From a virus (taxonomy: Duplodnaviria; Heunggongvirae; Uroviricota; Caudoviricetes): 64,000 nt of DNA. Both the position numbers and the translations under genes were made by a program. This document shows positions 8,437 through 60,060 of this stretch, in pieces. Numbering within the stretch: position 1 is the stretch's first letter; each line of letters starts with the position of its first letter. The notes below the pieces were generated by a model, which saw only the letters and a list, made by a program, of their open reading frames with translations, did not search any database and was not told where the DNA came from. The stretch lies in IMG/VR virus record IMGVR_UViG_2703718819_000006, one strand, 5' to 3'.

Positions 8437-10011
8437 TCACTCGTTCTCTTGAGTAGATGAGTCCCCATTCCCTCGGGGTTGATCTTGCCCGCTTTCTTGG
8501 GCTGCACCACGATCATAAGTAAGTACTGACTTATTTTCAAGGGTATTTAGATCATTTTTTGGAGGAAAATTCAAGAGATCTTTATCAAATTCCTTTTTCA
8601 TCGCCTCAGTAATGTTCGGGAAAATCTTCTCAATAAGCATTTCCATCTGGTGACGACGTACAGAGTCCGGTGCCTGAAGTAATGACAGTTTCTCGGCAAC
8701 AGCAAATTCATCAGTAAGGCCACGAATATCGAAACTTTCTGGATACGCAATTAAAGAGTGGTCTTCGTCCAGATCTACCCCCATCCATTTCGCAACCAGT
8801 AGCATGATTTGGCGTTCAGCCCTTTCCAGACGCTCTGCTTTTGTGACAAGCAAGCTATTTACACGCTGGAAGTCATACATTTTTGCGGCACCAGATGAAT
8901 TATCGATTCCCTGTGCGTTGTCCTGCTTCGTTCGCTCACCAGCTACACCAACTGAATGGTAGATTTCGTTAATCACCGTCTTAATCGTAGTGATGATCAT
9001 CTGAGCTTGTTTCGGGTCTGGTGACAGATAAAACGGCTGGTTTCCACCTTCAGAATCGTAGGTGAAGACTCGCTTTGTGCCCATTTCAAGCACTTTAGTG
9101 TGGTTTTCATCACCAGGTAAAAGCGACTGTACCGGTATAGCCAACTGGCTAAATGTCTGATCCTGAATAATGGCATCAAGGTTTGACAGATAGTTTGCAA
9201 CCGCACGATCAAGATAAGCGATATCATCGATCAACGATGGGCTGAAATACGGTGATTCACTTTCTCCAATACAATCAACAGGAAACACAGGAACTACGCC
9301 GAGATTATGCTCACCGCTATCCTCTAAAATAACTTTTGCCTGACGGCGACCTGCTCCACCAGCGCCCTTCTTCACTTCCTCACGGAACAGATACCACTCG
9401 TTTTGTGTCCACAGACGATAACGTTGGTATTCCTGACCTGTAGAAGTAAAAGGATCTGCGTCATCACGAGCGACTTCCACAATTAACGCCCACAACATAT
9501 TCCCGTCGTCGTCCCATGCCACATCCAGCATTTGCTGAGGTGAAATCCAGTAGGCGTAGGCGCGAGCATCTTTCTTTTTCTCGTCAGCTACTGACTCAAC
9601 ATCACCACTCATCGTGCTATCGACAACAACCCATATGCGACCGTAAATAGACGACTGCAAATCAATAGCGGCCATAAATGAGTCAATAGAGGCATTCTGG
9701 CGAGTCGCACGTTTCCAGAAATTGCGGATCTGCTCTGGTGCCTCTTCGATATTTCTATGAATGTCTTCTTTAAAGAGATATTTGTTGATGAGGTTTACCA
9801 CCTCACGAGTGTGGTTGAAACGATAAGCACGCTCAACTCGCTCCTTAAACTCCTGATCTCCCTCTTTAAAGTAACGAAAGATATTGTCTGTAAACCAACC
9901 ACGCCCGCCAGCGTAAGTGCTGGCGAGGAAGTCCCAATGTTCTTTTTTCTTTTCGTATTCCGGGTGGCGTCGCGCCACCAGATCCTTAATTTGTTTGTCG
10001 TTCAATTCCAT
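8437..10011 (-). CDS. portal protein
   Basis: 524 aa ORF immediately downstream of terminase large subunit; size and position typical. Confidence 0.6.
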   Translation of the reverse strand: MELNDKQIKDLVARRHPEYEKKKEHWDFLASTYAGGRGWFTDNIFRYFKEGDQEFKERVERAYRFNHTREVVNLINKYLFKEDIHRNIEEAPEQIRNFWKRATRQNASIDSFMAAIDLQSSIYGRIWVVVDSTMSGDVESVADEKKKDARAYAYWISPQQMLDVAWDDDGNMLWALIVEVARDDADPFTSTGQEYQRYRLWTQNEWYLFREEVKKGAGGAGRRQAKVILEDSGEHNLGVVPVFPVDCIGESESPYFSPSLIDDIAYLDRAVANYLSNLDAIIQDQTFSQLAIPVQSLLPGDENHTKVLEMGTKRVFTYDSEGGNQPFYLSPDPKQAQMIITTIKTVINEIYHSVGVAGERTKQDNAQGIDNSSGAAKMYDFQRVNSLLVTKAERLERAERQIMLLVAKWMGVDLDEDHSLIAYPESFDIRGLTDEFAVAEKLSLLQAPDSVRRHQMEMLIEKIFPNITEAMKKEFDKDLLNFPPKNDLNTLENKSVLTYDRGAAQESGQDQPRGNGDSSTQENE

Positions 10012-12022: not shown

Positions 12023-12119
12023 GTCTGGCATGTCTTACGAAGCCTGCTTCCGTATATATATTTAATAAGTTACTTATTATTTATATACAGAAGCAGGTCT
12101 TTAAATAAGCTCCCAGACC
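12023..12119. repeat. nested long palindrome (core 12043-12098, arms CCTGCTTCCGTATATA / TATATACAGAAGCAGG around AT-rich palindromic loop; outer GGTCTGG/CCAGACC)
   Basis: Seen in sequence; near-identical copy at 42072-42130. Confidence 0.7.
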
Positions 12120-12121
12120 GA

Positions 12122-12388
12122 TTACATCACCAGTAACTTCGCTTTGGCTCGACCTAAAGTAGTTAACCCAAGAGTTCGGCGGTGATAGCGATTGTCACTG
12201 CGTTGGCGCGTATGCCCTTTCTCCACCAGCCCCTTTTTTATCAGAGCGCGAATTGAGAACTGGATACTTTGCTTGGTTGTCTTGTACGGCAAAACTTCAA
12301 GCAATTCGTCCAGGTCAAGTAGATGACCTCGCTCATAACCGAGATTGAGCGTTTTGATGATGTCCTTTTGTTTATCGGTTAACGTCAT
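12122..12388 (-). CDS. small basic protein, possible DNA-binding regulator
   Basis: 88 aa, Lys/Arg-rich; no motif-level assignment. Confidence 0.3.
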   Translation of the reverse strand: MTLTDKQKDIIKTLNLGYERGHLLDLDELLEVLPYKTTKQSIQFSIRALIKKGLVEKGHTRQRSDNRYHRRTLGLTTLGRAKAKLLVM

Positions 12389-12397
12389 GGCAAATCC

Positions 12398-13297
12398 TTA
12401 TGCCGGTAAAGCAATTTCTAACGGTTTATCCAAAGGTTGTTTGTCGAATGCCAGCAGTGGCAGCGTGTCAGGCAGTCGACGACCAAAGTCAGGGTTTCGA
12501 TACACACCATACAACGGAGACGTAAAGCTCAGGTTGTGAATGTCCTTGAGCAGCTTCACAATGCTGGCCTCGTCCACCAGACTGTCGGCAATGTCCTGAA
12601 TCGTCGTGCCACGATTCCGCCCAGCTTTTGCCAGGGAACTGTTCTTGTGGTAGTCCGCCACCAGATCACGCAGTGCACGGCGACGACGAGACTCGCTCAT
12701 AGCGAACAACTCTTTGACGATCGCCTCGTTATCACCCGGGTCGGAGCGGAAATGGCGCTGGAACACACGCAGTGCACTTTCATAGCTCTTCGGTCGCTCA
12801 GGGCGGATGAACTTAAACCCTGCTTTCATGGCGAAGGGATTGTATTTGCTCATCGATGACTGGATCTCAATGATTGGCCGGTCATGCATCCTGCTAACCA
12901 GGTTAATCATTCGATAAGAGACGCCTACGCCACGGTACTGAGTATCCACAACTGAGCGGCTGATCACCGCAAAGTTGTTATTCACGTACCGGCCCCAGTA
13001 CTGGTTAGCCACGGTGGTATTGGTGGTTGGTTTCAACTTAGGAAACATGCGATGGCGAGGTGCCAGCAGAAGTTTCGGGTAAGCCATAACCACGACGCCC
13101 ACCAGACGGTCATCCAGTTCGCAGCGATAGTATGTTGGCGCGAAAGGTTTGCCGTCTGTTTTGTAGTGAAGCGACTTAAGAGCGTGCCAGTCCTCTACAG
13201 TTCCCTTTGTGACAGTCATTCGCTCCAGAAAGTCCAGATGACGCGGAAACTCTTCAGGGCGGTAGCGTTTGATGATGATATCTGCCATGTCGATCAC
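12398..13297 (-). CDS. hypothetical protein (possible GNAT-like motif RGVGVSYRMI), last gene of ParB/ATPase operon
   Basis: 299 aa; start overlaps stop of 13294..13548. Confidence 0.35.
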   Translation of the reverse strand: MIDMADIIIKRYRPEEFPRHLDFLERMTVTKGTVEDWHALKSLHYKTDGKPFAPTYYRCELDDRLVGVVVMAYPKLLLAPRHRMFPKLKPTTNTTVANQYWGRYVNNNFAVISRSVVDTQYRGVGVSYRMINLVSRMHDRPIIEIQSSMSKYNPFAMKAGFKFIRPERPKSYESALRVFQRHFRSDPGDNEAIVKELFAMSESRRRRALRDLVADYHKNSSLAKAGRNRGTTIQDIADSLVDEASIVKLLKDIHNLSFTSPLYGVYRNPDFGRRLPDTLPLLAFDKQPLDKPLEIALPA

Positions 13298-13548
13298 CTG
13301 CGCTCGATATTGGCATTGATGAAATCCAGGCGAAGAGACTCCATCGCCCCTACCATGACATACGGGCGCCCGCCGTTATGCCAGCAATCAAGAACACTGC
13401 CGTCGTTGTTGATCATCAACAGCGCCAGGCTCTGGCTTTTTCCTTCTCTGGCGTGCTGAAGTGCTTCTTCCAGCAGGCGGATGACTTCCACGTTGTTGTT
13501 ATCAGTCTCTTTCGATGGCTTCAGCTCTACGATCTTCAAATCAGGCAT
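13294..13548 (-). CDS. hypothetical small protein in ParB/ATPase operon
   Basis: 84 aa; overlapping start/stop with both neighbours. Confidence 0.35.
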   Translation of the reverse strand: MPDLKIVELKPSKETDNNNVEVIRLLEEALQHAREGKSQSLALLMINNDGSVLDCWHNGGRPYVMVGAMESLRLDFINANIERR

Positions 13549-14179
13549 ATTCCACCTTCACGCGTTCTTTGTAGTGCTTGGTGATCTGCATATCCGGGCG
13601 CAGCGCGTTCTTCAGGTCTTCGTGAGTCGTCGCCACCATTACCGTCGCACCAACCTTTCGAGCGGCACGCTGGAGGTTAGATGCCACAACCTGAGCGGTT
13701 ACACGGTCTAGAACAGCACCGAACTCGTCAGCAGCCCACACTTTAGCGCCTGACTCAATCAGTTTGGCAATCTTGAGACGATATTTCTGGCCGTCTGACA
13801 TTTCAGAAGGCTTGCGAACAAACAGATATGCATCGTTCAGACCAGCCATAGATAACAACCCAAGCGCATCACTGGTCGTTTTGCCCAACTGATCGATGAC
13901 GTTAACCTCATTATCGAAGGTAAAATCATCGATGGAGGCTACAGACAGCCCTTCATCCTTCATCTGTCGTTGCAACTCGCGCAGCACAACGGATTTGCCG
14001 GAACCGGATTGGCCGGTGATGTACACCACATCGCCCTGCTTCACTTCCAGCTCCAGATTGTCGTAAAGCGTCCACTCTTTTTCGTCCAGGCCAAGCCCGA
14101 ACGACTCAGCGATTTCCAACGTGCGCGTGGTTTTATTTACGCGTGTCTGAAACGATACGTTGATGATGTATTTGCTCAT
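13541..14179 (-). CDS. minimal ABC-type ATPase (nucleotide-binding-domain-like)
   Basis: 212 aa; Walker A GQSGSGKS, signature-like SDGQKYRL, Walker B VWAADEF, H-loop-like TTHED. Confidence 0.6.
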   Translation of the reverse strand: MSKYIINVSFQTRVNKTTRTLEIAESFGLGLDEKEWTLYDNLELEVKQGDVVYITGQSGSGKSVVLRELQRQMKDEGLSVASIDDFTFDNEVNVIDQLGKTTSDALGLLSMAGLNDAYLFVRKPSEMSDGQKYRLKIAKLIESGAKVWAADEFGAVLDRVTAQVVASNLQRAARKVGATVMVATTHEDLKNALRPDMQITKHYKERVKVEYA

Positions 14180-14877
14180 GCAGCCATCTCCCCGGAAGAG
14201 ATCTTCTCCGCATATGCCACAAATGCGTCTACCCCGCTTTCTCCCGTCATTTCTTCCATGTGGGCAAGCAAATCACCAACAACAATGGCAGAGCCAGCAG
14301 GAAGCGTTTTAAAGCCCAATACGTCGACAACACGTACTTCTTCCGCTGCAACTTCACGACTGATCTCGGTGTGTTCATCCTTCTGTCGTTTAGTTTCTTC
14401 GCCAAGATCGATAACTAGCGAGTCGGTGTCCATTTCTTCTGTCATACTGCCAACGAGAACATTCAACTCACGCTCTTCGAAGCCGAAAACCTCGATATCG
14501 TCCAGAACAAGCGACTCAAGCTCTTTCTGTAGCTTAATTGCATCGTAATCAATGCTGGCAAGTCGGTTATCTTCAAGGCGCTTTGCACGTACCTCGTCAT
14601 CACTCAGATCATCACGAACAATAACCGGTACGCGCTCAAGTCCAGCAAAAATTGCAGCCTCACGGCGGCCGTGGCCAGTAATAATTACGTCGTTCTTATC
14701 GACCGTAATTGGCTGGTCAAATCCGCGCTTTTTAATGGCTGCGGCCAGATCTCTGATCTGCTGTTCATCATGCTTTTTGGCATTCATCTCATAGGGAATA
14801 AGATCTGCCGGGTCGCGATATACGATTTCAAACTTTTTGGTCATTACATACGCTCCTTGTAGTAGTCGACCAGCCAC
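14176..14877 (-). CDS. ParB-like (ParB/Srx fold) domain protein
   Basis: 233 aa; N-terminal ParB-type box (IITGHGRREAA) with acidic C-terminus. Confidence 0.55.
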   Translation of the reverse strand: MAGRLLQGAYVMTKKFEIVYRDPADLIPYEMNAKKHDEQQIRDLAAAIKKRGFDQPITVDKNDVIITGHGRREAAIFAGLERVPVIVRDDLSDDEVRAKRLEDNRLASIDYDAIKLQKELESLVLDDIEVFGFEERELNVLVGSMTEEMDTDSLVIDLGEETKRQKDEHTEISREVAAEEVRVVDVLGFKTLPAGSAIVVGDLLAHMEEMTGESGVDAFVAYAEKISSGEMAA

Positions 14878-15542
14878 ACCAGAGCCTCACCAGCGTTCTC
14901 CATTTCATTACCGGTGTTAATAGCCTGCTCTTTGATGATGTTTTTTATGGTTTCTGCAACACGATCTGACGCATCGAAAGTTACTTTGAAGCGCATGGTC
15001 TGATGTTCCGCACCCACACGTTCGGTTTTCTCTCGTTTGTCGGTATCGACAGGCTCATCACTACCACGAGACAACGCCTCCAGTGCTTCAAGGTCGATTG
15101 CCGCCTCTTTTGCTAAAACCATCGAGATTTCGTCGTCATACGGAGCGATTTCAGACAGTTGATAGTCAAGTTCTGACTGAATTTCTTCAATGAAGCGTTG
15201 CAATGCGATTTGGTCGTCTTCACCGTATCGCTCGTTGTCCACCAGTGACATCTGTTTAGCTACGACATCGCTAATTTTGCCCACAGAAAGCACCGGAACC
15301 GTTGAAATTCCTTGCTCAATAGCAGCACGCCAGCGATGTTCACCTCCGAGAATTTCAAAAAATCCACCTTCAAGTTCACGAGCCAAAATTGGCTTAAAAA
15401 AGCCCAATTTTTCGATAGAACCTTTCAGTTTTTCAAAATTCTGCGCACCAACCGAATTGGTGTTCCAGGTATTCGGGCGAAGGTTGGCAACATCAACCTG
15501 CAAAATCGTGATTTTTACATCCATTTTATTGCTACAATCCAC
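14844..15542 (-). CDS. ParB-like (ParB/Srx fold) domain protein
   Basis: 232 aa; N-terminal ParB-type box (EILGGEHRWRAAIEQG). Confidence 0.55.
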   Translation of the reverse strand: MDCSNKMDVKITILQVDVANLRPNTWNTNSVGAQNFEKLKGSIEKLGFFKPILARELEGGFFEILGGEHRWRAAIEQGISTVPVLSVGKISDVVAKQMSLVDNERYGEDDQIALQRFIEEIQSELDYQLSEIAPYDDEISMVLAKEAAIDLEALEALSRGSDEPVDTDKREKTERVGAEHQTMRFKVTFDASDRVAETIKNIIKEQAINTGNEMENAGEALVWLVDYYKERM

Positions 15543-17473: not shown

Positions 17474-17938
17474 ATGAAGTCTCCCATACTGTTCACTTTC
17501 TGTTCTAAAACTATCATGAAATACTCGCTTCTCCCTCTACTAACGTTACCAGTGTTGATGCTTACCGCGTGCCAATCACGCCCAATATCAATCCATGACG
17601 CCAAACCAGCACCGCAGGCCAAAGTGTTCAAGTATCAAAGCGCAGCGCCAGCTACGTTGGTGGTAATGAGAGACACAGGTTTTGTAGGAGCTGGATGTGA
17701 TGCTTCCATTTTCATCAACGGCGAAACTGTCGCAAAACTGGCTACAGGCGAAAAAGCGACTTTCCATTTAAATGCCGGAGAATTAATTGTGGGTGCATCT
17801 CTTGAAGGTGCAGGTTTATGTGCTCTAAACCCCGCTCGTCAAGAGCGGGAAACGACTCTGAAGAATGGAGACACAAAAGCGTTCAGGGTGTTCACCAGCA
17901 ATTCTGGTGACATCGACATTCTGCCAACAACTCTGTGA
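17474..17938 (+). CDS. putative lipoprotein
   Basis: 154 aa; hydrophobic N-terminus ending in lipobox-like LTAC; SD GGGAGA upstream. Confidence 0.45.
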   Translation: MKSPILFTFCSKTIMKYSLLPLLTLPVLMLTACQSRPISIHDAKPAPQAKVFKYQSAAPATLVVMRDTGFVGAGCDASIFINGETVAKLATGEKATFHLNAGELIVGASLEGAGLCALNPARQERETTLKNGDTKAFRVFTSNSGDIDILPTTL

Positions 17939-17942
17939 TGAC

Positions 17943-18467
17943 ATGACAACCAAAGATATTACCTACGGTATCCAAGCTGAACTCTGGCCGCGAGATTACA
18001 CTAACGTTGAAAAACTACTGATGTTCTGGCGCAGAGAACAAATTCCTGTAAGGGTCACTCTCGAAGATGGCCAGGCGTTTTGCATGTACGTTTATGGCCT
18101 CATGCCATCTCGTAACAAAGTTGACCTTTGCCCAGCCCCTTTTGACAAAGAAAATCGCATAAGGCTCCCACTTGAACGCATTAGTACAATTGAATCAGGT
18201 GTGGTTGACAGTATCGCTCACGATTTCAAAGGTCGACTAACAGTTCACCCTGATTATGTCGATAATCGGCCATCACGCCGCGATTTTTTTGCAATTTGCA
18301 ACCAAGCCTACAAAGCAAACAAATCTATAAGGGTGTACATGGCGGATGGCCGTGAAATTGAGGGGGTGTCAGCAGGCGCAGATGCTTGTCAGGTTACACT
18401 ACGTGTCGAGAACGGTAGAAAAATAGTTGTTTTGTTCGATTGGGTTGAACGAATTTTGCCTTTTTGA
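17943..18467 (+). CDS. hypothetical protein (start at MTTKD, downstream of ORF-track start)
   Basis: ORF-track start 17865 overlaps previous gene; ATG at 17943 follows its stop. Confidence 0.4.
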   Translation: MTTKDITYGIQAELWPRDYTNVEKLLMFWRREQIPVRVTLEDGQAFCMYVYGLMPSRNKVDLCPAPFDKENRIRLPLERISTIESGVVDSIAHDFKGRLTVHPDYVDNRPSRRDFFAICNQAYKANKSIRVYMADGREIEGVSAGADACQVTLRVENGRKIVVLFDWVERILPF

Positions 18468-19063: not shown

Positions 19064-19714
19064 ATGGCTAACATTATCATTTCTAAAAAATCCATCGTTG
19101 AAGCTGCTTCCATTGTATCCGATGAACTGCGCGAAAAAGCAGATCTGGCAACTCAAACATATAATGAACATTATAAAAATGGTACGCACACTAAAGCAGA
19201 CAAAGCAAATATGCAAGCTGCGACCACTAAACTTGCTTACTTCATCAACAACGTTGTAAACGCTGTTGAAGACGAAAAATTATGCTCTGTTTTCTACTAT
19301 GCAATCAAAGCAAGCAAACAAGCGCCAGAAGTATTTTTCCGTGATGCAATGACTAATAGTTATTCACTGGAAAAACTGGTTTATCTGGTTAAATCCATTA
19401 AAGCTGGTAAATGCGTTTATTCCGTCGCTGATATGTCTGGATCTCGTGTATTCGCTTTAATCGATATGATTAACGACGAGATCGACACGTTCACTAATGG
19501 CGCTGTTTTCGATTTAATGAATGAAGCTAAAAAAGCGTGCGAAATTAAATTGGACGCTGGCTATACTCAAGCCAACCAGTTGATCAATCTTTGCGAACGT
19601 CTTGGACTTGTTGAAAAAGTCAAAGGAGCTGGGAGCGCGAAAGCTGGCACTCAGCAATATCGCTTTATCAAGAATGATTTCTACAATTATTTAGCTGATG
19701 CTTTTAAAGCGTAA
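19064..19714 (+). CDS. hypothetical protein, AT-rich accessory gene
   Basis: 216 aa; preceded by AT-rich promoter-like gap and SD AAGGAAAAA; followed by hairpin. Confidence 0.5.
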   Translation: MANIIISKKSIVEAASIVSDELREKADLATQTYNEHYKNGTHTKADKANMQAATTKLAYFINNVVNAVEDEKLCSVFYYAIKASKQAPEVFFRDAMTNSYSLEKLVYLVKSIKAGKCVYSVADMSGSRVFALIDMINDEIDTFTNGAVFDLMNEAKKACEIKLDAGYTQANQLINLCERLGLVEKVKGAGSAKAGTQQYRFIKNDFYNYLADAFKA

Positions 19715-20248: not shown

Positions 20249-20699
20249 TTTCCAATACTCCCACCATAACGCGCCAATGATGGCGCGTTTTTATTGTCTT
20301 TAACTCACTCCAACAACATAAAAATAAGCGCCAAAATAACGCCATAGACGCGCTTTTACATCCTTACCAGTACATACCCATTACTTAACACATTAACGCG
20401 CTTAAAACGCGTTATATTGCGCTATAGAGTATGGTTAATCATTGGCTTTTAGTCTTGCCATGTGATCCGCGTTAATTTGTCGGTGCGGATCGGCATTTTG
20501 TTTTGTTCTGTATCCGCTCGCGTATTATGTGCGCGTAATTTTTCACATAATCACACCACTTAATCACGTATGTGATTATGCTACGAAAGAAATCTGGATG
20601 TCTCAGGTGACGAAAGTCATCATAATTTTCCCCGCTCACCTGTCCGACAACCGCTGGTTGGATTCCACCAGCTTCCCGATGTTTTTTCTACATAAAGGC

Positions 20700-20825
20700 G
20701 AATGCAGCCGTTTCCCGAAAAAATCCTGGCCGTTTCCCGTCGGCTCATGAATACGTTCCTCGCCGTTTCTGAAATTTCCCTGCGGCAGCTGGTGGCTATA
20801 GAGAAAGGGCCGTTTCTGGCCCTCT
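20700..20825. repeat. array of GCCGTTTC(C/T) direct repeats (at least 4 units)
   Basis: Seen in sequence; second array at 23835-23965. Confidence 0.6.
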
Positions 20826-20831
20826 TCTCAG

Positions 20832-21314
20832 TTACACGCCATCAAGGATGTGGATGCGGTTGCTTGCGTATACATTCAGCATAAAGTTAGCGCAAAACAG
20901 TTTCCATGTATCAACGCCAGCGGCATACGTAATGTTTTTGCATTTTATTGCATTGTTGGCGATCCGCATCCCCTGTGATACTGCTTCATCGTCGGAAAAT
21001 TTGAACGACGATTGAGTTTTAATCCAGACAGAAATCTGCGTAGCGAACTCAATCAGCTTGGACTGGCAGAATCGCCCGGAGCGCACCGGAAAGACGAACG
21101 TTCCGAATCCAGAATTTACCACATACGCTTTCTCAAATACCCGCGAGTAACGACGATTGCCAATGATGTCGCGTGCAATAATGCATTTTTCTTGTGCTGA
21201 CAGTTCTACCGTCTCATTGTCGCGCCATGCACCAAGTACTCGTTTTTCAATGTCAGAGAACGTTACAGCGATATTGCCATGTGCGGGTGCGTTTACAGTA
21301 GCGATAAAATTCAT
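20832..21314 (-). CDS. hypothetical protein
   Basis: 160 aa ORF with family-1 motif just upstream. Confidence 0.45.
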   Translation of the reverse strand: MNFIATVNAPAHGNIAVTFSDIEKRVLGAWRDNETVELSAQEKCIIARDIIGNRRYSRVFEKAYVVNSGFGTFVFPVRSGRFCQSKLIEFATQISVWIKTQSSFKFSDDEAVSQGMRIANNAIKCKNITYAAGVDTWKLFCANFMLNVYASNRIHILDGV

Positions 21315-21335
21315 GATTAATTCCTTATCGTAAAT

Positions 21336-21350
21336 AACAAATTGTTTTCT
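21336..21350. promoter_or_regulatory. family-1 motif AACAAATTGTTTTCT
   Basis: About 20 bp upstream of start at 21314. Confidence 0.5.
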
Positions 21351-21399
21351 TGTTGGTGTTAATTATCGTTGTACGAATAAGGCGTCAAAGTGGAAAGTT

Positions 21400-21485
21400 G
21401 CGGTAGCCGGACGGGAACAGGTGGGTTTGTCGGTTGCCTGGAGGTAAGAGGTTGGTGTTATTAGCCTGAGGGAAACAGGATGGTC
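21400..21485. repeat. ~30-bp direct repeats CGGTAGCC(G/T)G..(A)AGAGGTTGG (3 units)
   Basis: Seen in sequence; second cluster 24548-24645. Confidence 0.5.
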
Positions 21486-21518
21486 ATTTAAGGCCACCAG
21501 CATTGGTGGCCTTAATAA

Positions 21519-21662
21519 TTATCGCCCGATTACGCTAAGGATCTTTTCCTCAACTGATTTGTTGTTGCGACTAAACTGCCTTGCGTATCTGATGACAGAA
21601 GAGGCGTTTTGCTTTCTGACCATCTCGGCTCTTTCCTTCAGGCGTTTCTTGAAATCGCCCAT
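21519..21662 (-). CDS. possible small basic protein (47 aa, MGDFKKRLKERAEM...)
   Basis: Own translation; ATG 3 nt after upstream gene stop; below ORF-track size cutoff. Confidence 0.2.
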   Translation of the reverse strand: MGDFKKRLKERAEMVRKQNASSVIRYARQFSRNNKSVEEKILSVIGR

Positions 21663-21664
21663 AT

Positions 21665-22081
21665 TTACCACCAGGCGCAGAAGGTCAGTCTGTTATTGTC
21701 AAAGTCGTGGTTCTTAATCAGATCTTCCACAAGCTCTTTCAACTGCCCCACATCATGCCAGTAACCTTCATCGTACTCCTGACTGCCGAAGAAAAAACCT
21801 TCCCGGGTAGGCAAGTACTCTTCGCAATTACTTTCGTTTATGTGCATCAAATGAGCCTTCAGAAAACAAATGTCATTCATCGTTAATTCTAAAAGCTCAC
21901 AATTTTCGACTTCACCTACGTTGCGCTCCATCCACCCAACGAGCGCATTGAACTTACGGAAGTAAGCAACCCGCTTTCTGGATGCCTCGTTATTCAGATC
22001 GTTTTTAGGCTGCGTCTCGATATAGATATCAAGTCCCATGATGGTTTCCTTATTAAGTTGCTTCAGTGAAATCATTTTCAC
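21665..22081 (-). CDS. hypothetical protein
   Basis: 138 aa; family-1 motif upstream. Confidence 0.45.
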   Translation of the reverse strand: MKMISLKQLNKETIMGLDIYIETQPKNDLNNEASRKRVAYFRKFNALVGWMERNVGEVENCELLELTMNDICFLKAHLMHINESNCEEYLPTREGFFFGSQEYDEGYWHDVGQLKELVEDLIKNHDFDNNRLTFCAWW

Positions 22082-22095
22082 AAACCAGATAAGGC

Positions 22096-22110
22096 AGAAA
22101 ACAAATTGTT
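22096..22110. promoter_or_regulatory. family-1 motif AGAAAACAAATTGTT
   Basis: Immediately upstream of start at 22081. Confidence 0.5.
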
Positions 22111-22156
22111 ATCGGGCATAAGAAAATGGCGCGGTTTACGCGCCATTTAAAGAGGA

Positions 22157-22552
22157 TTAAGCGAATACGCTTTCAGGAATTAAGGTGTCAGCAGGAATGC
22201 CGGAGGTAATCCGCAGGCCGTACTGGCCAATCCAGGTAGTGTTGGTATTCAGGCTGGAGGCGAATACGGTGTTAACCATATTCATCATGGTTTCAAACAC
22301 CTCTTCATCAACCTGGCGGAAGTAGTTCTCGATTTTCAGCAGCAGCGGGTCAGTTGCATCGAAAATAGACTGGTATTGAGTCGCGTACTCGCCGCCGGAG
22401 GCCTCACCTTTACGCACGATCGTACTGGCCTGGACTTCGGCGCCAGTTTCGGTGTTGTACGTAACAACGGTGATTTTTGCCACATTCTTACCTTCGGCGG
22501 TTTCAGAGGCATAGTAAACATCAACTGTCAGTTTTTCGCGTTTAACGGTCAT
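22157..22552 (-). CDS. hypothetical protein (start at MTVKRE with SD GGAG)
   Basis: ORF-track start 22618 would include family-2 palindrome and terminator; internal ATG at 22552 has proper SD. Confidence 0.45.
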   Translation of the reverse strand: MTVKREKLTVDVYYASETAEGKNVAKITVVTYNTETGAEVQASTIVRKGEASGGEYATQYQSIFDATDPLLLKIENYFRQVDEEVFETMMNMVNTVFASSLNTNTTWIGQYGLRITSGIPADTLIPESVFA

Positions 22553-22595
22553 TTCACTCTCCGTAGTGTTTTGGTTATTTTTATATTCTATGATC

Positions 22596-22611
22596 GTAAG
22601 TATGTACTTAC
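22596..22611. promoter_or_regulatory. family-2 palindrome GTAAGTATGTACTTAC
   Basis: Upstream of start at 22552. Confidence 0.4.
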
Positions 22612-22642
22612 AATACAAAAAAGCCCCGTAAGGATGGCGGGG
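22612..22642 (-). terminator. hairpin GCCCCGCCATCCTTACGGGGC + T-run on minus strand
   Basis: Seen in sequence downstream of 22679 stop. Confidence 0.55.
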
Positions 22643-22678
22643 CTGTCGTACGGTCGACTAATTACCACTTGCACATTA

Positions 22679-23020
22679 TCAGGCTATTGCCATCACTGAT
22701 GCTCTCTGAATCTCTTGCTGGGCCACGCGGTTAACTTCCATCAAAGCCAGTTCGAGCTGATGTTCCGGCCACATTCTTTGAAATGCCACCCAGCCTTTTC
22801 CACGCTGGCGACGAACATTCATTACATAACGAGTAAAGGTGTTTTTATCGAAAGACACCGCTGTTTCACGGAACAGACGAATAGAGGTTCCATTGGCAAC
22901 GATGTCCAGCAAAGTTAATTGAGCAACCAGCGCAGGCTTCTCTTTTCTCTTCTGGTCTTTGTCCAGACCAAGAACCAATGATTTTTTCATCACAACTCCG
23001 TAAACAACTTGTTTTCTCAA
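22679..23020 (-). CDS. hypothetical protein
   Basis: 113 aa; family-1 motif upstream. Confidence 0.45.
   Translation of the reverse strand: MRKQVVYGVVMKKSLVLGLDKDQKRKEKPALVAQLTLLDIVANGTSIRLFRETAVSFDKNTFTRYVMNVRRQRGKGWVAFQRMWPEHQLELALMEVNRVAQQEIQRASVMAIA
23002..23017. promoter_or_regulatory. family-1 motif AAACAACTTGTTTTCT
   Basis: Overlaps/abuts start at 23020 region. Confidence 0.5.
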
Positions 23021-23143
23021 TGGCGTAAATAATACCAGTAAGAAAACGGCTACAAAGCATATTGATCAGGTGCATGAGCTATATGCAGGTTCTTCACTGC
23101 GGCTATAGAGAAATTAAGCCAGCAATGCTGGCTTTGGTTGTGA

Positions 23144-23491
23144 TTACGCGAATACCTCAAGAAACTCCTGAACGTCCCAATGCTGGACGAGGTGAAGATA
23201 GACCTTAGAAATCACGTCATTTTCGCTATCGCATGTGAAGTAGTACTTCTGGCTGCGGTTGTATGTGTCCACACAAAATTCGCTCATATCCATAAAGTCA
23301 GCATCTTCACCCAGGTCGCTGATCATCAAAGCAGGTGCGTCATCACGAGTCATCAGTTCCAGCACCCATCTTGAATTAATCAGAGTGGAAGACCAACCTT
23401 CTAACTCATAAAACTGATCAAACTCTTTTTGAGTTAATTTCTTGATTTGGTTGATGTCGATATTTGCAAACATAAAGCAATCCTTAAACAA
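23144..23491 (-). CDS. hypothetical acidic protein
   Basis: 115 aa; family-1 motif upstream. Confidence 0.45.
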   Translation of the reverse strand: MFKDCFMFANIDINQIKKLTQKEFDQFYELEGWSSTLINSRWVLELMTRDDAPALMISDLGEDADFMDMSEFCVDTYNRSQKYYFTCDSENDVISKVYLHLVQHWDVQEFLEVFA

Positions 23492-23501
23492 CTTGTTTTC
23501 T
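23486..23501. promoter_or_regulatory. family-1 motif AAACAACTTGTTTTCT
   Basis: Abuts start at 23491. Confidence 0.5.
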
Positions 23502-23834
23502 TGATGGTGTTATTATCGCAACAACGCACAGGCGAAAAAGGATTTTATTCCGGTGAATGTGGTTTTGGCAGTGAGTTTTCAGGTTCAGTACCGAGTACAC
23601 TTTTTACATTATTCTGATTTAGTGGCCGAAGGTGGCTGGTGGGCAGAATAATCATCTCCCCGAAAACCTACTGAAATCGATTGTGACCCGTTGGCTGTCT
23701 GGCACAATTACGCTGTAGTTGGGCATTCAGAGGGAATCCAACGGTAAGTAAGTTCGCCTGCACGTGAGCGCCTCTCTTCTTCCCGCACATTACAGGTGGG
23801 TAGCCGCAACTCTCCCTCTCGCTATACCGGTACG

Positions 23835-23965
23835 CCGCCGTTCCTGAACCGGCATCGAGCCTTTTCCCGAAATCCACACAGGCAACTCGACCGTTTCCCT
23901 GAAAACCTCCAGCCGTTCCTCGAAGGCAACCCAGCCGTTTCTGTAGCGGGATGCAGCCTTTTCCC
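23835..23965. repeat. array of GCC(G/T)TT(T)CC(C)TG direct repeats (6 units, ~22-25 bp spacing)
   Basis: Seen in sequence. Confidence 0.6.
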
Positions 23966-24229
23966 TGTATGGACCGAAGGCTGACCGTAGGGGTGTTACG
24001 GGGGATAAAATCAGGAGTTGAATAAATACGAAAAAGGAGGCGACACCCCTCCTTCCCTCCCCACTTATACATACCTGTCTTGTTCGCTATACATGTTGTG
24101 TTTTCTTCGTGTTTTATCTGTTTCAACCTCTCTATAGGCGTTAATGCTCACTCCTTCCAGAACGTTCTATACGGCGACTATTTCTGTTGGTGAATTGGGT
24201 GTGTTGTTTTCTCTGTCGGTGTATGTGGT

Positions 24230-24660
24230 TTCGTTCGTTTTGCGGTGGTTCTTCTATGGGGTGTTCTCGTCGTTTTGGTGATTGTTCTTCTCCGTGTATG
24301 GAGTAATGGCAGGTGGGCGATTCCTTTCGTTGTTGTGTTTGAGTTGTTTGTCTGGAGTGTGTGGAAGGCTTTTGTAGTTATTCGTGTATTGGGTAATGGC
24401 GTTTCCCGTGATTGTTATGTTTCGTGTCTTTTGGGGTTGAGAGAATCCTTGCGGTTACAGGCTTCGTTGGGTTTTCAGTGATTCTGGTGTTTCTTCGCTG
24501 TTTGGGGAATGGCGTGTCGTGGGTATCGCGCGTATGAATGTTTTCGGATTGCCTGTGAAAGTTAGGTTGGTTGTCCGGTAGCCTGGGGAGAAGAGGTGGG
24601 TCTTTTCGGTAGCCTGCCATAAAGAGGTTGGTTGTTTTTGGGAATGGCATTTGTGTTATT
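24230..24660. repeat. GT-rich strand-skewed region with ~100-bp periodic GG(G)TAATGGC(G) units
   Basis: Four units near 24290, 24385, 24497, 24637; plus strand almost devoid of A/C runs. Confidence 0.5.
24548..24645. repeat. ~30-bp direct repeats CGGTAGCCTG..AAGAGGTTGGTTGT (3 units)
   Basis: Seen in sequence; matches 21400-21485. Confidence 0.5.
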
Positions 24661-25028
24661 TAGTTGTTTTGTTATGCCTGAAAATAAGTTGTTTATATGG
24701 TTGTGTAACGCAACGGGAGCGATTTTGAGCGTGTGTTTTTGTTGGTAGTGTGTTGGGTCGTCTGTGGTGAAAATTGGACGCTGTGGCGCTGTCTGCTGCG
24801 TAGAGTTACGGGTATAAGAAGTGATGTGTGAAAACGTCAATTTTTTAGACCAAATCGGGTGAAAGCGTTGACGTTTCGTTGATCTGTTATTTAGTTGTTT
24901 TCTTATTTGTATAAACAACCATAACCTATTGATATTTAAGGGTATGATTGCAGGTATGGAAGTGGGGTAGTGGCGATCAACGGATTCTTATAGAAAAGAA
25001 TCAAATTGTGACCGCCATTATCAATGTT

Positions 25029-57978: not shown

Positions 57979-58080
57979 ATCCACTATGGAGAGCAAAGAA
58001 ACCTCTGTAGAGAGCTGAATAACCGCTATGAAGAGTAAAACAACCACTCTGGAGAGCTGTATATATCCACTGTAGAGAGT
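57979..58080. repeat. iteron array A: five 16-bp repeats (A/T)(T/A)CC(A/G)CT(A/G)T(A/G)GAGAG(C/T) at 21-bp phasing
   Basis: Units at 57979, 58000, 58021, 58042, 58065. Confidence 0.75.
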
Positions 58081-58238
58081 AGAGCACATTGTCTTTTATG
58101 GATAACTTAATGACTTAATTCTTCATTAACATACTGATATACATAGATATATTTTAAACTCTACTCTTAGTCATGATTCTTATGTCCTTAAATATCCACA
58201 GAAGAGTAGAGTTACCTGTTCTTGAAATCCTCTGATTT

Positions 58239-58247
58239 TTATCCACA
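58239..58247 (+). promoter_or_regulatory. consensus DnaA box TTATCCACA
   Basis: Exact 9-mer between AT-rich tract (58085-58200) and iteron array B; second near-consensus box TTATCCACT at 57866-57874. Confidence 0.55.
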
Positions 58248-58358
58248 GGCCCGATCCAGTAATTCAGATCACAAAGAGAACCAAAGAGACCCATAAAGAC
58301 CCAATAAGATCCCCGCCCACCTCAAACCGTTGTGCCATCTGCCTTCAGACATGATCGA

Positions 58359-58481
58359 TATCCACTATAGAGAGCGAATAATCCACTATAGGGAGCAAAG
58401 CAACCACTATAGAGAGGAGAAAAACCACTATAGACGGTAGGATAACCGCTGTGATGAGTGCTACTATCCACTGTAATCAGC
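58359..58481. repeat. iteron array B: six repeats ATCCACTATAGAGAGC-type at 21-22 bp phasing, directly upstream of rep
   Basis: Units at 58359, 58381, 58402, 58423, 58444, 58466. Confidence 0.75.
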
Positions 58482-58521: not shown

Positions 58522-59577
58522 ATGAGCGAAAACGGCAATAAAAACATAGCGATCGTTGAAGCATTTTCAGAAACAGATAAAAAGACAGGCGAAGTTGTTA
58601 CGTTGGTTCCTAACACTAATAACACTGTTCAGCCTGTTGCTTTGATGCGTCTGGGCCTCTTCGTTCCGACGCTGAAATCGACATCCAGAGGAAGAAAGGG
58701 GCAAATGGTCTCTATGGATGCCTCTGCTGAACTCAAACAGCTGTCTCTGGCAAAAGCCGAAGGGTACGAAGACATAAGGATCTCTGGCCTTCGGCTTGAT
58801 ATGGATAACGACTTTAAAACGTGGGTGGGAATAATCCACGCGTTTGCCAAACACAAGGTCGTTGGCGATACTGTCACGTTGCCGTTCGTTGAGTTTGTAA
58901 GGCTGTGTGGCATTCCGACCGCCAGGTCATCAGCGAAGTTACGCAAACGCCTGGACAGTTCGCTAAGCCGTATTGCCACAAACACCATCTCGTTCCGTAG
59001 CAAAGGCTCTGATGAGTTTTACGTAACGCATCTTGTGCAAACGGCAAAATATAGTGTCAAGCACGATACGGTCGAACTGAAAGCAGATCCCAAGATTTTC
59101 GAACTCTACCAGTTCGACAAAAAGGTTCTTCTGCAACTCCGGGCTATAAACGAACTCTCAAGAAAAGAATCCGCTCAGGCGCTTTATACTTTTATTGAAA
59201 GTTTGCCGCCTGATCCGGCACCAATATCACTAGCCCGTTTACGCGCCAGACTTAATCTGACAAGTCGCACTATTACTCAGAATGCGACGGTAAGAAAGGC
59301 TATGGAACAGCTGCGAGAGATAGGATATCTCGATTACACGGAAGTTAAGCGCGGAAACTCGGTCTACTTCGTCATCCACTATAGGCGGCCAAAGTTACGC
59401 CAGGCACAAATATCAACAAAAATCGATAATGATGAGACGGAATATAGCCTCCCAGATGAGAATCAAGATGACATTATCGACGTTGTGCCTGACGAAAAAG
59501 AAGGCAAAATGGTCATGTTGAGTAAAGAAGAACTGGCACTTCTCGAAGAGTTGCGCAAGGCAAAGACTCGCAAATAG
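58522..59577 (+). CDS. iteron-binding replication initiator (Rep)
   Basis: 351 aa plus-strand ORF flanked on both sides by iteron arrays with DnaA box and AT-rich tract; assignment by architecture. Confidence 0.6.
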
Positions 59578-59579
59578 CC

Positions 59580-60060
59580 CAACCACTGTAGTTAGTAGTA
59601 AGGCTCACTATCCACTGTAGTGAGCCTTACTTATATCTGTAATTCGCTATCCACTATAGTGAGTATCGTTATCTGTTGATAACCACTGTAGGCAGTAGAA
59701 TGCAAATACTGAATTAAATGTTAGTGATCACTAACACTGATGAAACAAGGGCTGCGAGGTTAGTGGTCACTGGGTATCTTGGAAAATTTACTGTCTATAG
59801 TGGTTGTTGTCGCCCTCATCTTTGAGCGTATCCACTGTGGCGAGTGGATATCCACTGAAAACAGCAAAGGCTTACTCACCATAGTGGATACCCGCTGGAC
59901 ATCTCACTCCAATACTCACCATAGTGGTTGTTTGATGCGAATGAAAGGCTGTCTACTCGCTACAGTGGTTAGCAGATATGTAGGAAGGTTTTGTTACTGA
60001 CTACAGTGGATAATGAGCTGGATACGAATGCGGTGAGCAGACTACTCACCGCAGTGGTTG
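59580..60060. repeat. downstream iteron-like cluster (CCACTGTAG / CCACTATAG cores in both orientations, at least 10 units)
   Basis: Seen in sequence; includes palindrome TAAGGCTCACTATCCACTGTAGTGAGCCTTA at 59600-59630. Confidence 0.65.

Follow-up and report, generated by a model that had tools for sequence, protein, structure and literature searches.

Two conserved direct-repeat arrays in an SSU5/pHCM2-type phage-plasmid, best read as multimeric protein-binding sites

Two direct-repeat arrays at the ends of a small-gene cassette

The stretch of 64,000 nucleotides analysed here (the window; IMG/VR record IMGVR_UViG_2703718819_000006, Caudoviricetes) belongs to an SSU5/pHCM2-type phage-plasmid. 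Over positions 20400-24300 it shares 98% identity with Escherichia phage Cyrano (plasmid pLF82), and this region has matches in 659 plasmid records from Escherichia, Klebsiella, Enterobacter, Salmonella (pHCM2), Citrobacter, and Cronobacter, almost all of which are IncFIB and non-mobilizable. Within this region lie two arrays of short direct repeats, comprising four and six same-strand copies, respectively, of (C)AGCC(G/T)TT(T/C)CC(C), with a spacing of mostly 22 nt. The locus is organized as follows.

20705..20772, plus strand: array 1, three conserved units with cores at 20707, 20729, and 20762
20805..20825, minus strand: intrinsic terminator hairpin of the gene for a 160-aa protein; its loop holds what the first-pass annotation counted as the fourth unit of array 1
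20832..23491, minus strand: small-gene cassette bracketed by the arrays; gene functions unassigned, content variable between lineages
23822..23829, plus strand: CTATACCG box, directly upstream of the first unit of array 2
23835..23966, plus strand: array 2, six units with a 22-nt period and one 31-nt step
24031..24057, minus strand: intrinsic terminator, conserved; precedes array 2 by 65 bp when read along the minus strand

On the plus strand, the units of array 1 start at 20707, 20729, 20762, and 20809 (spacing 22, 33, and 47), and those of array 2 at 23837, 23859, 23890, 23912, 23934, and 23956 (spacing 22, 31, 22, 22, and 22). The word GCCGTTTCC, allowing at most one mismatch, occurs 27 times in the window versus 12.3 ± 3.8 expected, a number reached by no shuffle, and the largest same-strand cluster contains six matches within 130 bp, compared to a maximum of three in 500 Markov simulations. 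Unit positions, shuffles, and simulations thus confirm the two arrays of four and six direct-repeat units described in the first-pass annotation; both arrays are real and non-random. The regular phasing proposed for them holds for array 2, which is mostly spaced by 22 nt, whereas array 1 is regular in its first pair alone. A consensus built from 186 distinct unit contexts reads (C)(A)G-CC-(G/T)-TT-(T/C)-C-C-C, and among 103 distinct arrays in 80 IMG/VR loci 195 of the 296 spacings are 22 nt.

The best-conserved unit is the third of array 2 (ACCGTTTCCCTGAAAACCTCC), and several lineages have a (C/T)TATACC box, related to that of array 2, ahead of the arrays' first unit. The fourth unit of array 1 (GCCGTTTCT, 20809-20817) is present, but constitutes the loop of the minus-strand terminator hairpin; the loop, GTTTC(C/T), is nevertheless retained in three lineages despite differing stems. 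A Chi site (20788-20795) is located inside the conserved flank of array 1. Both arrays are non-coding, as had been stated before: in none of the relatives does PGAP place a gene over array 2, a period of 22 nt does not preserve the reading frame, and the only open reading frames overlapping the arrays (20529-20750, plus strand; 23668-24126, minus strand) are dubious.

Conservation of the arrays across relatives

In enterobacterial relatives, two same-strand clusters occupy equivalent syntenic gaps, and the core word CCGTTTCCC is invariant in every one of them. Specifically, the word is kept while the spacers drift in pHCM2, Klebsiella, Enterobacter, Cronobacter, Citrobacter, and pMT1, and it is likewise kept in the divergent locus L011 (160-aa neighbour 51% identical), in CP027615.1, which has a different Rep cluster (160-aa protein 33% and 216-aa protein 48% identical), and in a third divergent lineage (L208-L213). 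Since the spacing in L011 and CP027615.1 is irregular (24-37 nt), constraint acts on the word, not on the period. The clusters are limited to these two in each genome, a whole-genome scan of Cyrano (108 kb) having revealed no others, and more than 700 plasmid records carry the arrays. In Yersinia pestis pMT1, array 1 is retained, and an IS1541 insertion and a deletion are found at the expected place of array 2.

Distant contigs of the SSU5 supergroup were retrieved with an alignment of ParB1, a protein of the module described below, led by a distant homologue; ParB1 is 37-43% identical there. These relatives possess arrays at the syntenic place, 5-6 kb from ParB1 and with 22-24 nt spacing, which are made up of altered words, namely GCCGTACTCC in L230, L246, L249, and L284, GCCGTTCGG in L277, and TGCCAA in L223. 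The arrays are hence an old feature whose word changes over time, which is what a protein-DNA pair would lead one to expect. An absence of the arrays from related elements, which the first-pass annotation had considered as a possible refutation, was not found, every relative keeping arrays and pMT1 keeping array 1. A scan of genome contigs for a pair of the word returned chance matches only, across unrelated phyla. No description of the repeats was found in a literature search, which for SSU5/pHCM2/pMT1-type phage-plasmids likewise returned no mapped cis-acting sites besides the RepA iterons.

A core word conserved among enterobacterial relatives with drifting spacers, and replaced by altered words at the same place in distant ones, is characteristic of an array of protein-binding sites. 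We accordingly take the arrays to be ancient and clearly functional cis elements, and almost certainly multimeric sites for a DNA-binding protein of the element, a reading already put forward on first inspection and supported by the phased, conserved units in non-coding DNA.

Transcriptional setting

When read on the minus strand, each array comes after an intrinsic terminator (24057-24031 for array 2, the hairpin 20825-20805 for array 1) and is followed by minus-strand promoters. The location of both arrays 35-65 bp downstream of minus-strand intrinsic terminators, together with the C-rich, G-poor plus strand of array 2, would suit an action on RNA or transcription, either as C-rich Rho-loading tracts for plus-strand read-through or as roadblocks backing the two terminators. 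We regard this as highly improbable, as Rho-loading sites do not keep a precise 9-10 nt word across such divergence; a search of Rfam gave no relevant match.

The position at both ends of the cassette also bears on a neighbouring gene.

19064..19714, plus strand: 216-aa protein, rival candidate binder; winged helix predicted at the C terminus, recognition helix (YTQANQLI) invariant

The arrays might be operator or insulator sites of this protein, which would loop or insulate the small-gene cassette from both ends. This is rather unlikely in our estimation, as the protein is not detectable in distant relatives whose arrays still share the AGCCGT core, and as the arrays are 60-450 bp away from the nearest promoters and are thus not classical operators. 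In the distant relatives with altered words, the 216-aa protein, the 160-aa protein, and the FljA-like protein described below all escape detection, and profile comparison of a 244-aa open reading frame in L246 with the 216-aa family was not significant. As a candidate binder, the 160-aa neighbour yielded a structure model without a recognisable fold.

Replication, packaging, and the RepA iterons

Array 2 adjoins an 800-bp, strongly strand-skewed non-coding block, the arrays are iteron-like, and the element encodes UvsW, UvsY, and a gp32-like protein, which point to T4-style replication. Together with the co-occurrence of TerS with the arrays, this would be compatible with a lytic replication origin or a packaging (pac) site bound by an initiator or the small terminase subunit. 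We consider such a role improbable: neither array has an AT-rich unwinding element beside it (GC 0.51-0.59 around array 2), no initiator was recognised, just one of the two arrays adjoins the skewed block, and TerS is 9-12 kb away.

The block itself (24100-24900) contains 70-81% G+T on the plus strand, with a GC skew of approximately +0.45 and an AT skew reaching -0.67, and this skew is conserved at the level of base composition in pHCM2, Klebsiella, Cronobacter, and CP027615.1, with no PGAP gene there. A minus-strand transcript of the block, initiated at promoters near 24850-24910 and ended by the terminator at 24057-24031, would be CA-rich. The block holds about four diverged repeats that feature a GG(G/A)NNATGGC box; every one of them could, in addition, be the start of a tiny hydrophobic plus-strand open reading frame.

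The iterons of RepA were rejected as an identity of the arrays. RepA (58522-59577) is flanked by its own iterons (57979-58480 and 59580-60060), and these resemble the arrays in their 21-22 bp period, their same-orientation repeats, and their arrangement in two clusters. However, a distance of 35 kb separates them from the arrays, and their word, repeated every 21 nt, is (A/T)TCCACTRTRGAGAGC rather than GCCGTTTCC. The array word, moreover, does not co-vary with Rep but outlasts a change of Rep type, being identical in CP027615.1, whose Rep cluster differs (49% identity).

A ParB-domain module as candidate binder

Two proteins with a ParB N-terminal domain are encoded in an operon on the minus strand of the window.

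14844..15542, minus strand: ParB1, with ParB N-terminal domain (GGEHRWRAA), acidic linker, and conserved C-terminal 55-aa domain; candidate binder
14176..14877, minus strand: ParB2, second ParB-N-domain protein, same operon
12122..14179, minus strand: rest of the module, i.e., an 88-aa winged-helix-like protein (wHTH88, 12122-12388), a 299-aa ATPase-like protein (p299, 12398-13297), and an ABC-type ATPase (13541-14179)

The gene set common to every array-bearing lineage sampled consists of TerS, the 88-aa winged-helix protein, p299, the ABC ATPase, ParB2, ParB1, and UvsW, and the distant relatives with altered words retain all seven. Between the window and CP027615.1, which share an unchanged word, identity is 88% for the ABC ATPase, 80% for p299, 78% for wHTH88, and 65% for ParB. 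The link of the arrays to ParB drawn in the first-pass annotation is therefore plausible, if unproven, since the pair of ParB-N-domain proteins belongs to the gene set travelling with the arrays. Searches of PADLOC, NCBIfam, and PHROGs returned no function for the module.

The ParB_N domain is present with GGEHR instead of GERR, and alignment to Spo0J is unreliable past residue 110. The C terminus of ParB1 has the conserved pattern THQxMRFKVxxEDAxxV...TNAGDALVxL, and the residues preceding MRFKV differ by word class (HQT, HQI, YRV, and HVV).

A further resemblance concerns the sites. The parS site of ParB (TGTTTCAC-GTGAAACA) and the NBS site of Noc (TATTTCCC-GGGAAATA) have the half-sites GTTTCAC and ATTTCCC, respectively (PMC7383237). 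The unit core GTTTCCC is a hybrid of both half-sites, a resemblance and no more, and genes for ParB-N-domain proteins are present. Whereas parS and NBS are 16-bp palindromes, most array units are half-sites in direct repeat: the half-site is found in every unit, and a partial second half in few units, with 10 of 14 positions at best. This best value is that of the third unit of array 2 (GTTTCCCTGAAAAC), which matches either 14-mer (parS or NBS) at 10 of 14 positions. The local ParB-like proteins, furthermore, are without a detectable ParB helix-turn-helix.

We tentatively propose that the ParB-domain module binds the arrays and that these act like centromere or loading sites; identity of the binding protein and role of its complex are both what we infer here. 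Several points weigh against the proposal. The canonical ParB helix-turn-helix domain (HTH_ParB) was not detected in ParB1 or ParB2, which qualifies the ParB link as first drawn. The C terminus of ParB1 resembles a ribbon-helix-helix in its sequence pattern, and a PDB profile search with this domain found no match, so that the assignment stays putative. The co-variation of ParB1 residues with word class is suggestive and is confounded by phylogeny. The ParB genes and the arrays are separated by 5-8 kb, and the promoter region of these genes lacks the array word. Since every phage has TerS, and UvsW co-occurs too, co-occurrence is not specific to ParB. Finally, the units are direct repeats, unlike the palindromes bound by classical ParB dimers.

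Relation to plasmid centromeres and to the ParA of the element

The arrays have several features in common with pB171 parC1/parC2, R1 parC, TP228 parH, and pSM19035 parS: the repeats are short and clustered, share one orientation, lie in non-coding DNA, form two blocks, and are phased on one helical face. In contrast, these plasmid centromeres have 6-11 bp units, whereas the arrays have a 22 bp period with a 9-10 bp core. The arrays, moreover, adjoin no par operon, and instead of ParA or ParM they are associated with ATPases of the ABC type; it is with these, not with a ParA, that the ParB-like genes share their operon. The partition centromere suggested by the first-pass annotation thus stands as far as a repeat array in non-coding DNA is concerned, but the arrays are neither adjacent to nor co-varying with a ParA/adaptor operon.

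A ParA, for which a search outside the window had been recommended, was found: in Cyrano, a type Ib ParA and a 119-aa partner are encoded approximately 39 kb from the arrays, with parA outside the window. The arrays could be the centromere of this pair, at a distance from the par operon, as is the case in N15. Centromeres of types Ib and II typically consist of direct-repeat arrays, a form that is seen here; no repeat array was found beside parA in Cyrano or CP027615.1, and the 119-aa partner is 90-100% conserved in most relatives. However, approximately 39 kb separate the arrays from parA, the partner in CP027615.1 is 48% identical while the word is unchanged, and pMT1 retains array 1, yet the partner search found no Yersinia match. 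On balance, we give this explanation little credence.

The centromere sites of N15 are dispersed single inverted repeats among phage genes, bound by SopB and far from the binder genes. The arrays are similar in being cis sites of a phage-plasmid among phage genes and far from the genes of the binder, which here is only a candidate. They differ in that multi-unit direct-repeat arrays take the place of single inverted repeats for SopB.

Proposed function of the arrays

Returning to the ParB-domain module, the arrays would be direct-repeat sites for one sequence-specific DNA-binding protein from the conserved SSU5-type core, with several protomers placed on one helix face (22 bp corresponding to roughly two turns) at each of two sites, which are separated by 3.1 kb. 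The nucleoprotein complex would form in the two terminator-to-promoter gaps flanking the small-gene cassette. Likeliest as binder would be the ParB1/ParB2 pair, possibly together with the 88-aa winged-helix protein of their operon, and the arrays would act as parS-like loading or nucleation sites, the DNA being positioned, condensed, or silenced with the operon's ABC-type ATPases. More speculatively, and with considerable doubt on our part, these components (ParB1/ParB2, the 88-aa protein, and two ABC-type ATPases on phased direct repeats) might constitute an undescribed DNA-handling system for ParA-independent, ParB-based partition, condensation, or silencing, whose sites insulate an early-gene cassette. 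Phage-plasmids of the SSU5/pHCM2/pMT1 type occur commonly among clinical Escherichia, Klebsiella, Salmonella, and Enterobacter, and the two-array site with its lineage-specific words offers an experimental handle on the function of the ParB/ABC-ATPase module or on the place of the centromere, lytic origin, or pac site.

Additional sequence features

A palindromic box, AACAAnTTGTT, is present upstream of the cassette genes and also ahead of parA in Cyrano. It was rejected as a par operator, since it recurs at least 18 times across the genome and each time directly precedes a gene, which marks it as probably a general promoter or operator element. The palindromic box, in the form (G)AAAACAAnTTGTTT(TC), lies within a conserved module of approximately 35 nt and precedes parA, the helicase gene, nrdB, terS, and many other genes. 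A role as promoter or operator throughout the genome is probable, analogous to that of the C1 operators dispersed over P1. Its sites are listed below.

Window: 11968, 21336, 22100, 23003, 23487, 26123, 26174, 30112, 38925, 39654, 49874, and 63687
Cyrano: L003 83, 29260, and 32081; L004 8596, 20327, 30550, and 31279

Between array 1 and the plus-strand terminators, an inverted repeat (CATAATCACA...TGTGATTATG) is located at 20546-20580; its counterpart by position in L011 differs in sequence. Promoter-like sites on the minus strand (20646-20575) suggest the start of a small transcript here. L011 (reverse complement of 8480-9160) and CP027615.1 (L013, 10900-11000) have, immediately ahead of array 1, a run of TTTAGC(C/A/G)-type repeats of about 9-10 nt each that is without equivalent in the window. 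Near-identical, perfect AT-rich hairpins (GACCTGCTTCTGTATATA...TATATACAGAAGCAGGTC) are found at two distant intergenic sites (window 12040-12100 and Cyrano L003 31157-31213) and may represent a repeated bidirectional terminator or another cis element.

Chi (GCTGGTGG) occurs at 15 sites in the 64 kb versus 1.2 expected, a number not reached by any shuffle; examples are 20665 (minus), 20788 (plus), 21494 (minus), and 23635 (plus). The gene at 17865-18467 (plus strand) encodes an FljA-like protein (Pfam Flag1_repress, E value 2.5e-84), a family whose name derives from the Salmonella phase-1 flagellin repressor, and is kept in enterobacterial relatives including pMT1.

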